Positions 47,591-63,491 are shown, numbered from the stretch's first letter. The stretch is DNA of 64,000 nucleotides from Yuukianura sp. NJ FZ-2021 (GCA_046563655.1 CM102285.1:868001-932000); one strand, 5' to 3'. A program made the numbers and translations. The notes: generated by a model not told the origin, from the letters alone.

Positions 47591-48993
47591 ATGCTCGGCA
47601 ACGGATTTTTCGGAATTCAAATTTCCCTCATTTTTTTCTCGATACTCATTTTAGAAAATTGTGCAACTTTGAAAAAGTATGATGCTGCCAAAAAAGTTGT
47701 AAAATTTCTGGAAACTGTTCCCGCCATAACAGACGATCCATTCACCGAAGTGTTTCGGTTGATAGACAAAGTCTATGATAAAATAGGCATAAGTCAAGCA
47801 TTCAACGGGAATGCTGAAACGACTCAAGCCAAAGTGAGCAGTCCAGTACGCGTGACGAGACCACCAATTGAGTCTGCCGTTTACTACTACAACTACGCAA
47901 TGGCAGCTACATGTGAAAGTAGTTTGGAGAAATGGGACTGCTGCTACTGTAAAGTACTCGGAACACACATTCGACTGATTACACTCTATGTCAATCCTTA
48001 CTTCCACCACAAATGGTTTGTAACTGTGGATGACAAACGACAAGAAATTGTGTTGACCTTTCAATCTGCGTTGAACCTCGGAACAGCTTTTACAGCCGCG
48101 ATGTACATTTTGACCAAATTTGAAGAATCGCCTGACATCATGATTCACACAGGATTTTTAAAAGCACTTTCAGCCGATTATGACAAAATTGTGGCTGTTC
48201 TGAAACGTATAACAGAGTGGCATCCAAAGTACAAGTTGATTCTAACAGGTAAAACTTAATGCTTAATCTTTTAAACTTGTCTCACTTTTGTTAAATTGTG
48301 TGTAAATTTTGCACCATTTATGTTATTTCGTTATTCAAGTGACCTTGACCTTGACTTTGTTTTTTGTTAGGTTTGAGCTACGGCGCTAATATGTCTTCAC
48401 TCATGACTTTTTTGCTGAAGTATCGAAATACTTTGCCGAACACTGCAATTGAACTCTTCACTTACGGAGGGTTGCGTAACGGAAACAAAGCTTATGCCGA
48501 TTTTATGAACAACTTGACAATTCCAGTTGCACGCGTAGTTCAAACAGACGATTTGGCTGTAAGATTTCCTCCAGCATCTCTAGGCTACTACCACCATCAC
48601 AACGAACTTTTTATTTTGGATGATGGCGGTGGGAATCGAACTGTTGGCTACTGCTCAACAGAGTTCTACGAGGCTCCTGAGTGTGCACAGTCTCGTGGTT
48701 CTAGTTTACTCACCGTTCAGCCAAGCAAACTAGCCATTGATCATCTCTCGTACTTTGGGATTGAACCCAGCAAATGTTTACTGAATGCACCAATTGAATT
48801 TTTGTTACAAGCATTTTGGCCACTGCGCAGCCTCATTCCGGTTGACCTGTTGGACCAAATTCCAAAATTTTCTTTTGACTCAAACATTGTTGAAGACTGG
48901 CGCTACTTTGTTAATGCTGGAATTCGAAATTTGTATAAAGCTGCAAGCAAATCATCAACTTACTATAAGGCTAATGGATGGAAACCACAGTGA
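47591..48993 (+). CDS. Secreted class-3 (fungal-type) lipase copy 1; exons 47591-48248, 48371-48993
   Basis: Signal peptide, WDCxxC, IHTGF, spliced nucleophile elbow TG|LSYG, RVVQTDD (Asp) and DHLSYFG (His). Confidence 0.9.
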
Positions 48994-49709
48994 AGCGAGG
49001 ACAAGAAAACAATTTTTTTCGAGTTACAACGGCTAATAATTTATAAAGTAAGGAAAGCTACTTTATGAATTGATTGTCTGTCTTCCTGTAGTTGTAGTGT
49101 AGTTGGCGGCAATTATATATATATATATATACATATATTATATAATATGTTATTTTGATGTAGAGGAGTGATTGTCCTATTAAAAGTCTTCGATTCATCC
49201 TTGAAGTATTGCTTTTGCAAAAAAAAAATTCGTTCGTTTCTTAAGTTATACGGTATGATTTAGGTATTACATAGTATAATTGAGTATACGATACTTAAAT
49301 ATAATGTATATGCAATTACTAATTAAAAGTGAGTGTCAAAAGTGAAAAAGCAATTCTCCGTATGCATGAGCGAGTCAAGAAGTTTTGCAGGTTCAGTCGG
49401 ATCTTCAATCACGCTTTGATTGTCTTGTGATACGAATGACGACAATCAAAGCATGACTGAACAACCGACACAACCTTCAAAGTTAGTCACTAGTCACTTC
49501 AGCACGGAAAAAAAAATTAAATTTTCACTCTAAAATCATATCAATTTGTTTCAAAAACAATTATTTTAAATTATTTGGAAATTTTTACAGCATTCGCGCC
49601 AATTATTTGACAGGCATTCCTTTCAAACAAACAAAAAGCTTGGTAGAAATTGTATAAATACTAACATCATAAAACTTTTTGTTGTAGATTTCGTTTTAAA
49701 AGCAATAAA

Positions 49710-49915
49710 ATGCTCAGGCGCGGTTTTTTTTTTGGAATTCAAATTTTCCAAATTTTTTGTCGCTACTTATTTTCCAAGAATGTACAAACTTTGAACAAGT
49801 ACGATGCTGCAAAAGACGTGATGAAATTTCTGGAGAGTGTTCCAGCCATAACAGACGATCCATTCACCGAACTGTATCAGATGATAGACAAAGTGTTTCA
49901 TAAAATAGGCATAGG
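49710..49915 (+). pseudogene. 5'-only lipase fragment truncated at a duplication breakpoint
   Basis: Encodes the lipase N-terminus up to KIGIG, then switches to sequence matching the flank upstream of PA-RING copy 1 (AAACTCAATCC.GAA.G, ~44445). Confidence 0.85.
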
Positions 49916-50227
49916 CTGTGAGAAACTCAATCCCGAAAGGAAGTTTATAACTTAAAATTAGCACCTTGTTTATTGAAAATTGACGAGTGCAAAAAACTGC
50001 AACACTGCACTGGTGCAGTTCGCTTTTTTAATGTCCGAGTCCAAGGTTTTCTTCTCAGAATTTTAGTGTAAACTTTATGGTAGCCTAGACTGTAAGCTTC
50101 TGTCAAGCTATGAAATCATCTCTTCAAACTAGTGTCAACTAAACATCAGCTGCTTAGTCTCTAATAAAAGTCTGAATGCAATTAACAGTTCAAATAAATT
50201 TTACTTAACGTAATTTGGATTTACATA

Positions 50228-60798: not shown

Positions 60799-60943
60799 GG
60801 TGCTGTTGTGTTCCTCAAAAACAAACTGAAAAATAAAGTCAAAATGAAAATGCTTAACCATGAGGACCTCTGTAGCAAAACGATTCTTTCCAGAAAGAAA
60901 CGTAAATAATAAAAAATTTAAAAGTTGATTAAAATAAGTTATA

Positions 60944-61157
60944 CAGTGAGTGCCACGAAAACCTGCACACCTCAAAAGCAGCTTTTTGTTTATTTTGCTA
61001 AATTGTGGGGGGAAAAAGGTTTCATGAAAACAGCTGAAATGATTGTTTTGCAACAGAATCAAGTTTTTAAGCTCAAAAGTTACGTTTTCGCCTCCATGAT
61101 TTTAGTTGTTGCCAGGGAAACAAATTTGGGGTGTGCAGGTTTTCGTGGCACTCACTG
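60944..61157. mobile_element. Young Tc1/mariner-type MITE (214 bp)
   Basis: Perfect 28-bp TIR CAGTGAGTGCCACGAAAACCTGCACACC, with TA on both sides (60942-60943 and 61158-61159). Confidence 0.92.
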
Positions 61158-61960
61158 TATAAAAAATTCATCAGTTTGACGTATATTACATATGGAGTTG
61201 AGAATTGCTTTATCACGGTAATGAGCAACTTATCCTTGCTGAAAATTAAGTTTAAACTAAACTGCTTTGTAACCGTTGACTTTTGGTGATATGGAACATG
61301 GAAGTGTAAAAAATAGAAAAACAACTTTGTTCCAATTTCAGTTCACAATCCTTCGACACAAGAAAAATTTTAGCAAGGCAAATACAATGGCGGTTTATTA
61401 AATCTATTTTGATGTAGAGGAGTGATTGCCCTATTAAAAGTCTTCGATTCATCCTAAATTTATAGCTTTTGCAAAAACAAAAAACTTTGGTTTCTACCGT
61501 TGTAGGCCAGGATTTAGGTATTACATACTATAATTGAGTATACGATGCAAATGTAATTGATATGCAATCACTAATTAAAAGTGCGTGTTAAAAGTGAAAA
61601 TGCAATTTTCCGTAAGCATGAGTGAATCAAGAAAGTTTGCAGGTTCTGTCGGATCTTCAGTCATGCTTTGATTGTCGTGTGATACGACTGACGACAATCA
61701 AAGCGTGACTGAAGAACCGACATAACCTTTAAACTTTCTTGAGTCACTTAAGCACAGAAAAAAAACTAAATTTTCATTTTAAAATTACATCAGATTGTTT
61801 CAAACACAATTATATTAAACGATTTGGAAATCTTTGAGCATTCGCGTCAATTATTTGATACACATTTCTTTCAGACAAGAAAAAAAACATTATAGAAATT
61901 GTATAAATACCAACATCAAAAAACTTTTCGTCTGCTGATTTAGTTTTAAAAGCACTTAAA

Positions 61961-63491
61961 ATGCTCAGACTCAAATTTCTTAGAATTCAAATTTTCCTAA
62001 TTTTCTTGTCGCCACTTATTTTCCAAGAATGTGCAACTTTAAACAAGTACGATGCTGCTAAAAAAGTTGTGAAATTTCTGGAAAGTGTTCCAGCCATAAC
62101 AGACGACCCATTCACCGAAGTGTATCAGTTAATAGACAAAGTATTTGATAAAATAGGAATAGGCAAAGCACTCAACGGGAATGCTGAAACGAATCAAGCC
62201 AAAGTGAGCAGTCCAGTACGCGTGACGAGACCACCAATTGAGTCTGCCGTTTACTACTACAACTACGCAATTGCATCTACATGTGAAAGTAGTTTGGAGA
62301 AATGGGACTGCTACTACTGCAAAGTGCTTGGAAAACACATTCGACTGATCACACTTTATGTCAATCCATACTACCAAACCAAGTGGTTTGTAAATGTTGA
62401 TGACAAAAGGCAAGAAATTGTGTTGACCTTTCGACCTTCGTTTAACATCGCAACACTTTTTGTGTCCGCGAGTGTCGTATTGACTAAATTTGACGAATTA
62501 CCTGACATTATGATTCACACGGGATTTTTAAAAACGGTTTCTGCTGATTACGACAAAATTGTGGATGTTCTGAAACGCTTAACAGAGTGGCATCCAAAGT
62601 ACAAGTTGATCATAACAGGTGATGGTAATGATGATGATAAAAGCTACTTTATGCATCGACCTTGTCGGCCTGTCTGTTTATTTCTTTCTGTCTGTCCGTC
62701 TGCGTGTCCGTCTGTCTGTCTGTCTCTCTTTCTGTCTGTCTGTCTCTCTTTCTGTCTGTCTGTCTCTCTTGTCCGTCTGTCTGTCTGACTTTTGTTAAAT
62801 ATAGCATGTTCGAGACTACATTTCGCACCATTTCTGTGTTTTATTCAAATGACCTTGACCTTGACCTTGACTTTACTTTGATTGTTTAGGTTTGAGCTTG
62901 GGCGGTAATATGTCTTCAGTGATGACTTTTTTGCTGAAGTATCGAAATACTTTGCCGAATACTGTAATTGAACTTTTCACTTACGGACAATCACGTTGTG
63001 GAAACCAAGCTTATGCAGATTATATGAACAATTTGACAATTCCAGTTGCTCGTGTGGTGCAAACAGATGATCTCCCCGCACGGATTCCTCCAGCAGCTCT
63101 AGGCTACTACCATCACCACAACGAACTTTTTATTTTGGATTACGGCGGTGGGAATCGAACAGTTCGCTACTGTTCAACAGAGTTCTACGAGTCTCCAGAG
63201 TGTGCACAGTCACGTGGTTCTGGTTTACTTTTGAAACAGCCAAGTCTACATCTAATTGATCATCTCTCGTACTTTGGGATTGAAGCAAGCAAATGTGTCC
63301 TGGAAGCTCCAATTGAATTTTTTCTACAAGCGGTTTGGCCACTGCGTAGTCTCATTCCAGTAGACCTGTTGGACGAAATTCCAAAATTTTCATTCGATTC
63401 AAACATAGTTCAAGACTTGCACTACTTTGTTACAGCTGGAATACGAAATTTATATAAAGTTGCTAGTAAATCATCAACTTACCATAAGTAA
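61961..63491 (+). CDS. Class-3 lipase copy 4; exons 61961-62618, 62890-63491
   Basis: Paralogue; elbow G-L-S-L-G-G, TYGQSRCG, DHLSYFG. The intron contains a (CTGT)n microsatellite. Confidence 0.9.

Follow-up and report, generated by a model that had tools for sequence, protein, structure and literature searches.

The window analyzed here is a stretch of 64,000 nucleotides (nt) from Yuukianura sp. NJ FZ-2021 (GCA_046563655.1 CM102285.1:868001-932000), whose positions are counted from its first letter. Between 47591 and 63491, on the forward strand, it harbors four intact two-exon lipase genes, here designated c1 to c4, in which all open reading frames (ORFs) are open and whose products comprise 419-427 amino acids (aa). 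The genes, their promoter boxes and the incomplete copies found in and beside the array are as follows:

47591-48248 (+): c1 exon 1, which encodes the signal-like N-terminus, followed by a pro-like region and by the lipase domain's N-terminal half, and ends on the first base of a Gly codon
48249-48370 (+): c1 intron, GT-AG, phase 1, 122 nt, with (TGACCT)3.3 at its 3′ end
48371-48993 (+): c1 exon 2, encoding the G-L-S-Y-G nucleophile elbow, the Asp, the His, three Cys and a C-terminal tail of 73 aa; c1 product, 426 aa
53919-54576 (+): c2 exon 1; c2 product, 427 aa
54700-55325 (+): c2 exon 2, with G-Y-S-Y-G, preceded by an intron of 123 nt
56626-57283 (+): c3 exon 1; c3 product, 426 aa
57944-58566 (+): c3 exon 2, with G-L-S-Y-G, preceded by an intron of 660 nt
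61961-62618 (+): c4 exon 1; c4 product, 419 aa
62890-63491 (+): c4 exon 2, with G-L-S-L-G-G, preceded by an intron of 271 nt that contains a (TCTG)26 array
47532-47540 (+): GTATAAATA box of c1, 58 nt 5′ of the ATG
About 53863 (c2), 56568 (c3) and 61902 (c4) (+): equivalents of the GTATAAATA box, by position relative to the ATG
49710-49916 (+): truncated 5′ exon fragment, holding the first ~68 codons followed by divergence and a stop, 65% identical in amino acids over 69 aligned positions
46933-47224 (+): promoter/start-region remnant, 71-75% identical to the upstream regions of the intact genes
53209-53503 (+): second such remnant

In all four genes the TATA box GTATAAATA is found 56-59 nt upstream of the ATG, and the sole intron is of the GT-AG type, in phase 1, and placed after the first base of the first Gly codon of G-x-S-x-G, with exon 2 contributing the last two bases of that codon and the following residues L/Y-S-Y/L-G. 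Residues 9-20 of each product are hydrophobic, with a Kyte-Doolittle mean of 2.4-2.55, and all later 19-aa windows remain at or below 1.6; by this hydropathy calculation, which is not a dedicated predictor, the N-terminus fits a signal peptide. The four proteins are mutually 78.0-89.5% identical. These models confirm a sequence-only reading of the region, in which four intact genes plus fragments had been described, each gene with a TATA box, a signal peptide and one intron inside the first Gly codon of GxSxG, the signal peptide being borne out as a signal-like hydrophobic N-terminus in each copy. Additionally, (TGACCT)3.3-3.7 arrays are found at 48340-48359, 54668-54687 and 62850-62871, directly 5′ of the acceptor sites of c1, c2 and c4, and the c3 intron retains two TGACCT units; on the reverse strand, TGACCT reads AGGTCA.

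Family assignment, active site and constraint

All Pfam and PDB scores refer to separate exon products and not to the spliced protein. The two exon-2 products tested matched the Pfam family Lipase_3 (PF01764) with 32.6 and 44.8 bits against a gathering cut-off of 22, and the exon-1 products alone remained below it, with 21.8 and 17.6 bits. The only other Pfam row was a weak PKD_2 match (0.0055), under its own cut-off, and the arthropod neutral (PF00151) and acid (PF04083) lipase profiles gave no match at E<=0.01 in four exon products. When the c4 exon-2 product was compared by HMMER with all solved structures, 28 distinct chains were matched at E<=1, the best being the Rhizomucor miehei lipase 4tgl (1.4e-15) and the Rhizopus lipase 1lgy (8.7e-11), and the c1 exon-1 product matched 15 chains, with 1lgy at the top (5e-9). 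The alignments extend as far as the fungal enzymes' last Cys, and the motifs WDCxxC, YKLILTG, GYYHHHNELFI, YCSTEFYEAPEC and DHLSYFGIxxxKC align with their R. miehei and Rhizopus counterparts. It had been claimed that the motifs closely parallel those of Rhizomucor and Rhizopus lipases and that the proteins are not typical arthropod pancreatic or acid lipases; the alignments to 4tgl and 1lgy support the former, and the latter agrees with the Pfam result. By these sequence criteria, c1-c4 are class-3 (Rhizomucor-type) lipases and do not belong to the usual arthropod lipase families. A search of the ESM Atlas again returned just Lipase_3; its first cluster, in which Nematoda is the commonest taxon, is a feature match and not an alignment, and it was not used.

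The catalytic triad is retained in all four copies, with Ser in G-x-S-x-G, Asp in R-V-V-x-x-D-D and His in D-H-L-S-Y-F-G-I, at the R. miehei positions, which we take to be S144, D203 and H257. Likewise, Cys 108, 117, 120, 314, 324 and 355 are present in every copy and fall in the fungal Cys columns (WDCxxC, C...E..E-C and the C-terminal Cys), presumably corresponding to the three disulfides of the zygomycete enzymes, with the same pairing. The surroundings of the triad have changed: in place of the elbow consensus G-H-S-L-G-G, c1 and c3 carry G-L-S-Y-G-A, c2 carries G-Y-S-Y-G-A and c4 carries G-L-S-L-G-G, with G-x-S-x-G intact throughout, and in place of F-R-G-S/T the oxyanion loop reads F-Q-S-A, F-R-P-G, F-G-P-S and F-R-P-S in the four copies. 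A pro-like stretch of ~60 residues precedes the region aligned to the mature fungal enzymes. At the other end, 66-73 residues follow the last Cys, where the solved fungal enzymes end, and in the alignments this tail shares D/A-P-x-x-F-x-L-Q ... L-x-x-x-I-P with the arthropod-bearing lipase clade described below.

The lipases of Rhizomucor miehei (3tgl, 4tgl, 5tgl, 6qpp) and Rhizopus (1lgy, 1tic, 6a0w) are thus the best solved relatives of c1-c4, with which they have in common the triad positions, WDCxxC, the C...C pair before the His, DHLSYFGI...C and an N-terminal pro-like region. They differ in their low identity (~28%, measured with P0101, the representative of the Mucorales enzymes, which matches the R. 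miehei pro-lipase 6qpp at 1e-110), in their unchanged G-H-S-L-G-G and F-R-G-S motifs and in lacking the tail of 66-73 aa.

The ratio of nonsynonymous to synonymous substitution rates (dN/dS) was 0.30-0.46 in the six pairs of c1-c4, and, when three pairs were divided by region, 0.31-0.51 in the core and 0.18-0.39 in the C-terminal tail. Therefore, all copies, the tail included, are under purifying selection. From these characters it may be expected that c1-c4 are secreted, that they fold with disulfide stabilization as the Rhizomucor enzyme does and that they hydrolyze triacylglycerols or similar esters; the most plausible site is the gut of an animal eating fungi and detritus, where their role would be digestive. 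The use for digestion or defence that the sequence-only reading had suggested is likewise conjectural. Owing to their different elbow and oxyanion-loop residues, the four copies may also differ in substrate range.

Relatives and phylogenetic position

A profile-free HMMER search with c4 exon 2 against 1.84 billion representatives gave 520 matches at E<=1e-3, 40 at E<=1e-10 and three at E<=1e-30, the best of them ~50% identical and without an organism name. Names were available for 30 of the 150 listed representatives, and for matches of the profile search. Among them, the animals were the springtail Folsomia candida ("lipase-like", "lipase") and the sciarid gnats Bradysia coprophila ("lipase-like") and Pseudolycoriella hygida ("Lipase"), with no further animal among these named matches, and the fungi were Neoconidiobolus thromboides, Entomophthora muscae, Massospora cicadina, many Coemansia, Penicillium and Candolleomyces; a haptophyte, Prymnesium, was also found. 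Over the whole protein, c4 is 34% identical to the best Folsomia lipase (151 bits), 31% to that of Neoconidiobolus (140 bits) and 28% to P0101 (113 bits). When longer relatives of exon 2 were sought with a word index, 582 candidates were returned, none of them at E<=0.001, and the search was uninformative.

A scan of metagenome contigs yielded ten lipase loci. The first, L001, carries a tandem pair of lipase genes that belong to the window's subclade (760-1502 and 2425-3805), the upstream one with an in-frame stop in exon 2. The products of its intact gene and of the loci L002 and L003 are 42-54% identical to c4 over the whole protein, and all three loci share with c1-c4 the phase-1 intron in the Gly codon. 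In other loci the intron lies four codons downstream (L007) or elsewhere (L006), or is absent (L005, encoding P0007). The neighboring ORFs of the window, namely the PA-RING and Cys-rich ones, had no match in the ten loci when synteny was checked. A tandem arrangement is also seen within multi-domain gene models of Pseudolycoriella (784 aa), Folsomia (788 aa), Coemansia (802 aa) and Massospora (517 aa).

The main tree was inferred with IQ-TREE under LG+C20+F+G4 from 70 rows and 357 columns. In this tree, c1-c4 form one group (100/100) whose sisters are L001-L003 (100/100), and the two together join eight unnamed proteins (96/98). A clade of 28 rows (100/99) holds the array and every Folsomia and sciarid row, with no other named members; this contradicts the idea that the family is private to the present genome. 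The 28-row clade, in turn, joins 20 rows that include all named Entomophthoromycotina (Neoconidiobolus, Entomophthora and Massospora), with support of 99/96, and the Mucorales-type clade (100/99) and a Coemansia clade (99/98) lie outside. A FastTree analysis of 102 rows gave the same picture, with a support of 98 for the arthropod-bearing clade. Additionally, a tree restricted to the 28 named rows recovered an arthropod clade (91/96) and an entomophthoralean clade (93/92). In both trees the sciarid rows nest with those of Folsomia (P0006, P0026 and P0152 with P0021 and P0183), with support of 99/99 in the main tree and 94/91 in the named-only tree.

The C-terminal tail follows the same division. 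Among the reliably readable rows of the arthropod-bearing clade, 20 of 23 carry a tail of 39-66 aa after the last Cys; the five remaining rows stand outside this count, two for want of a motif match, two because the motif match was false and one as a multi-domain row. The rows of the window were counted as slices. In the other 42 rows, the His...Cys motif was found in 19, of which 16 have a tail of 0-3 aa, including every motif-bearing named Entomophthoromycotina and Mucorales-type row. As judged from these alignments, the tail is a clade-specific addition, and this character supports a single arthropod-bearing lineage.

Within that lineage, the Folsomia candida lipases XP_021961427.2, XP_021961627.2 and XP_021966037.1 are the springtail members; they carry the tail and occur in several copies on one scaffold, but are merely 30-34% identical to c4 and fall in another subclade. 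The sciarid lipases (Bradysia coprophila; Pseudolycoriella hygida KAJ6632650.1 and KAJ6635787.1) belong to the same clade and also continue past the last Cys, but are dipteran and 27-32% identical to c4. Overall, the single-domain named rows of the clade range from 30 to 34% identity to c4, and the three-domain Pseudolycoriella row has 27%. Since the family is shared with Folsomia and the sciarids at 27-34% identity, the transfer discussed below would be old, or one of several. Among named fungi, the rows closest in the main tree, the Lipase_3 proteins of Entomophthoromycotina (Neoconidiobolus thromboides KAI9294281.1 and others, Entomophthora muscae and Massospora cicadina), are of secreted type and ~31% identical to c4; they differ in ending 0-1 residue past the last Cys, with no tail, and in keeping G-H-S-L-G-G.

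Host genome and origin of the family

A cv-2/BMPER gene lies in the window, with exons matching VWC (1.1e-23) and VWD (4.9e-16) and with named BMPER relatives. The cv-2 exon compared is 64% identical to the protein of Allacma fusca, 56% to that of Orchesella cincta, both of them springtails, and at most 46% to those of the named beetles, flies and flea; by these identities, the host is a springtail that is not closely related to the named ones. The lipase genes had been described as lying in clearly animal surroundings that include cv-2, and both the domain matches and the springtail identities agree with this. A self-comparison of the window further revealed a repeat that joins a lipase to a neighboring gene, with an identity of 86-89% between its two copies:

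44444-49043 (+): duplicated unit 1, a gene with PA and RING-finger domains (PA-RING gene) plus c1
49923-55370: duplicated unit 2, partner of unit 1, the PA-RING copy plus c2
44660-46157 and 50198-52639 (+): the two copies of the PA-RING gene (PA, 5.8e-5; RING, 8.1e-10)

Therefore, a host gene and a lipase gene were duplicated as a single unit, and the array grew by tandem and segmental duplication. The tandem amplification that had been proposed is thus borne out, with one step taking the host PA-RING gene along. In composition, the lipase coding regions have a guanine-cytosine (GC) content of 0.40-0.43 and a third-position value (GC3) of 0.37-0.42, and their neighbors have a GC3 of 0.36-0.46, with one cv-2 exon higher. 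The description of the genes as domesticated is likewise in keeping with their introns, TATA boxes, host-like GC3 and dN/dS of 0.30-0.46.

The physical continuity of the region was evaluated with contigs from sequencing runs. When 44001-63900 is divided into 30 bins, each is covered by contigs from three runs of one sample, from which the assembly probably derives, and one contig, from run X1, spans 58479-60346, from the 3′ end of c3 to the region of the next gene, with zero differences. Contig depth, which is a weak measure only, is about the same over the lipases as over the PA-RING genes. In a further run, X4, from a second organism and another study, pieces ~88-96% like 44001-63900 were found across the lipases and their flanks, such as one at 48385-48641, within c1 exon 2, that differs at 10 of 257 letters. 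The divergence of these pieces indicates that a related species or strain carries the same array.

The locus is most readily interpreted as a tandem array of four functional secreted class-3 lipase genes that would derive from an old transfer from a zygomycete and would now act as ester hydrolases, with a probability of roughly 0.6. A fungal origin is favored because the named animals of the clade are a springtail and two sciarids, which are not sister groups, and because the wider family is fungal. In this scenario, a secreted zygomycete lipase would have entered the springtail lineage, or arthropods, long ago, the nearest sampled fungi to the donor being Entomophthoromycotina. After the transfer, the C-terminal tail would have been gained, as would introns, the one in the Gly codon arising within the window's subclade, and the genes would have adopted TATA boxes and host-type promoters and undergone repeated tandem duplication. 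As to the fungus-to-arthropod transfer from Mucorales-like lipases that the sequence-only reading had put forward, transfer from a fungus is likely and stands, and Mucorales as the donor is not favored, since the nearest sampled fungi are Entomophthoromycotina. It may be noted that the genomes of Entomophthorales, which are arthropod pathogens, contain 132-348 Lipase_3 genes, the median of all genomes compared being 66, according to the portion of that study available (10.1101/2023.09.13.557621). Tentatively, and with a probability well short of even, the sequence of events could be specified further: springtails would have taken the lipase from an entomophthoralean-like pathogen, added the tail and introns and expanded the family, and sciarids would later have received it from springtails.

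Several observations weigh against this interpretation. In the approximately unbiased (AU) test, a tree uniting the 38 rows that are neither arthropod nor outgroup was not rejected (delta log-likelihood 18.2, p-AU 0.102), and neither was one uniting the arthropod-bearing with the Mucorales-type clade (delta log-likelihood 12.2, p-AU 0.182), both groups having been defined after the tree was seen; the backbone of the named-only tree does not resolve. Because the AU tests reject neither alternative, a fungal transfer is likely but not proven, and the maximum-likelihood tree that had been suggested as a check supports it in part, by placing the clade among fungal rows. Moreover, the arthropod-bearing clade consists mostly of metagenome or Logan proteins without an organism name, some of which could be fungal, and with 30 of the 150 listed representatives named, the family may also occur in other animals. 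In addition, c4 is no nearer to the Folsomia lipases (30-34%) than to that of Neoconidiobolus (31%), and, judging from the residues, the changes at the elbow and oxyanion loop may have altered or abolished activity in some copies.

Among the alternatives, contamination or a chimeric contig, with a lipase segment from a fungus in the sample, is very unlikely because of the co-duplication, the neighbor-like GC and GC3, the (TGACCT)n array shared by the introns, the run contigs and the X4 copies; the chance that remains to it is minute. In its favor there is just the fact that the runs with good coverage come from one sample, probably the assembly source. In this regard, the lipases are interleaved as well as co-duplicated with the PA-RING gene, repeats are common to them and their neighbors, the X1 contig links c3 to the next gene region, and their relatives are annotated chromosomal genes of Folsomia and Bradysia. 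A much more serious competitor, although still unlikely, is vertical inheritance, in which an ancient opisthokont class-3 paralogue was kept in springtails, and in sciarids, and lost in nearly all other animals. It draws on the AU result for the non-arthropod rows and on the named-only backbone, already mentioned, and on the deep divergence within the arthropod clade (27-34% identity) and the fully animal look of introns, tail and composition. However, it would require very many independent losses, the free maximum-likelihood tree nests the clade in fungal rows (99/96), and the clade's named animals, after a look-up of all 24 of its full-length rows in the first tree, are confined to one springtail and two sciarids. 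Insects usually have 1-3 lipase3 genes, in the table available from a survey that used Drosophila CG33174 as a probe (PMC7240578, Table 1), which also argues against this inheritance.

Several transfers, in which the subclade of the window, with L001-L003, and that of Folsomia and the sciarids would each have been gained independently from related but unsampled fungi, and in which some of the unnamed rows would themselves be fungal, appear somewhat less probable than vertical inheritance. Such a history is suggested by the 17 of 28 clade rows that come from JGI, Logan or mixed sources without an organism name, by the intronless P0007 (L005) and the retention of the fungal G-H-S-L-G-G in P0003, P0005, P0007 and P0008, and by an identity between subclades as low as that to fungi. 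On the other hand, the tail is common to the whole clade and absent in named fungal rows; seven of the ten metagenome loci, from several subclades, share one record prefix and a GC of 37-43%, which fits one animal genome with many paralogues; and the 6.6-kb contig of L005 lacks any further long ORF, in contrast to what a compact fungal genome would show. A different objection concerns function rather than origin, namely that the copies are no longer true lipases but binding proteins, or enzymes for another ester, whose elbow and oxyanion loop have drifted. It is about as doubtful as several transfers: G-H-S-L-G-G is replaced in all four copies, as is F-R-G-S/T, and metagenome relatives vary too (G-W-S-Y-G-A and G-Y-S-I-G-G), but Ser, Asp and His are retained in c1-c4 and in L001-L003, the core remains constrained (dN/dS 0.31-0.51) and the G-x-S-x-G pattern is intact.

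The transferred-lipase interpretation agrees with what has been reported for springtails. In the sections available of two genome papers, 253 foreign genes are given for Orchesella cincta and 809 for Folsomia candida, of which 30.4% and 32.8%, respectively, are fungal, and such genes are described as linked to native genes, expanded after transfer and proposed to serve feeding on soil organic matter (PMC4987106, PMC5490193). The array resembles them in general, namely in the fungal share, the linkage to native genes and the expansion. In the same sections, both papers stress carbohydrate-active enzymes and antibiotic clusters; "lipase" has zero mentions in the main text of PMC5490193 and appears in that of PMC4987106 among expanded families only, not among foreign genes. 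A literature search found no paper naming the family as transferred and no main-text discussion of the Folsomia lipases; the horizontal gene transfer lists are in the supplements of PMC5490193 and PMC4987106, which may contain Folsomia or Orchesella homologues. Most likely, therefore, the present case adds one family to the known foreign enzyme families of springtails. Sciarids, for their part, share "alien" P450 and terpene synthase genes with springtails and mites, lipases being absent from the available sections of both papers (PMC12051294, PMC11665903), and the distribution of the sciarid lipases recalls this pattern.

If the interpretation is correct, fungal-type secreted lipases, shared with sciarids, would extend the foreign repertoire of springtails to lipid digestion, and the family would mark unusual gene sharing between sciarids and soil microarthropods. 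Were the passage from springtail to sciarid also true, this would be the third "alien" family of sciarids and soil microarthropods, beside the P450s and terpene synthases; and if the donor was an entomophthoralean pathogen, the host would have taken over an attack enzyme of its pathogen. The clade-specific tail and the drifting elbow would also be easy targets for biochemical comparison with the industrial Rhizomucor and Rhizopus lipases.

Further features of the window

Outside the lipase genes, the following features were observed, the searches for noncoding elements with Rfam and tRNA scans giving no matches in the window:

5487-18574 (+): four tandem gene copies, each with an ORF of ~650 aa followed by one of ~150 aa
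3108-3842 (-): ORF with a MACPF_SNTX (stonustoxin-like MACPF/CDC) domain, 5.3e-15
2472-3107 (-): ORF adjoining the preceding one, with no family
36875-38752 and 41005-43101 (+): two tandem F-box genes, with F-box at 1.8e-7 in the first and the remainder without a Pfam family
59355-60166 (-): Cys-rich ORFs, located between c3 and c4 in several frames, with no Pfam family

The four tandem ORFs at 5487-18574 had been labeled "IRs", which was not confirmed, as they matched no Pfam family at E up to 10 and gave zero PDB matches; they probably represent a lineage-specific family of membrane proteins. The Cys-rich ORFs at 59355-60166 probably belong to one small gene of several exons that encodes a secreted Cys-rich protein.

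Additionally, the window contains high-copy repeats. In each of the four runs, the summed contig depth at 51305-52632 is ~40-240x that of typical bins at its flanks, and lesser excesses of depth mark the repeats at 36461-36751 (-), 55289-56616, 58609-59272, 60601-61264 and 63257-63900. An element at 51728-52030, which carries a 62-nt tandem array at 52191-52408, recurs in the opposite orientation at 36461-36751.

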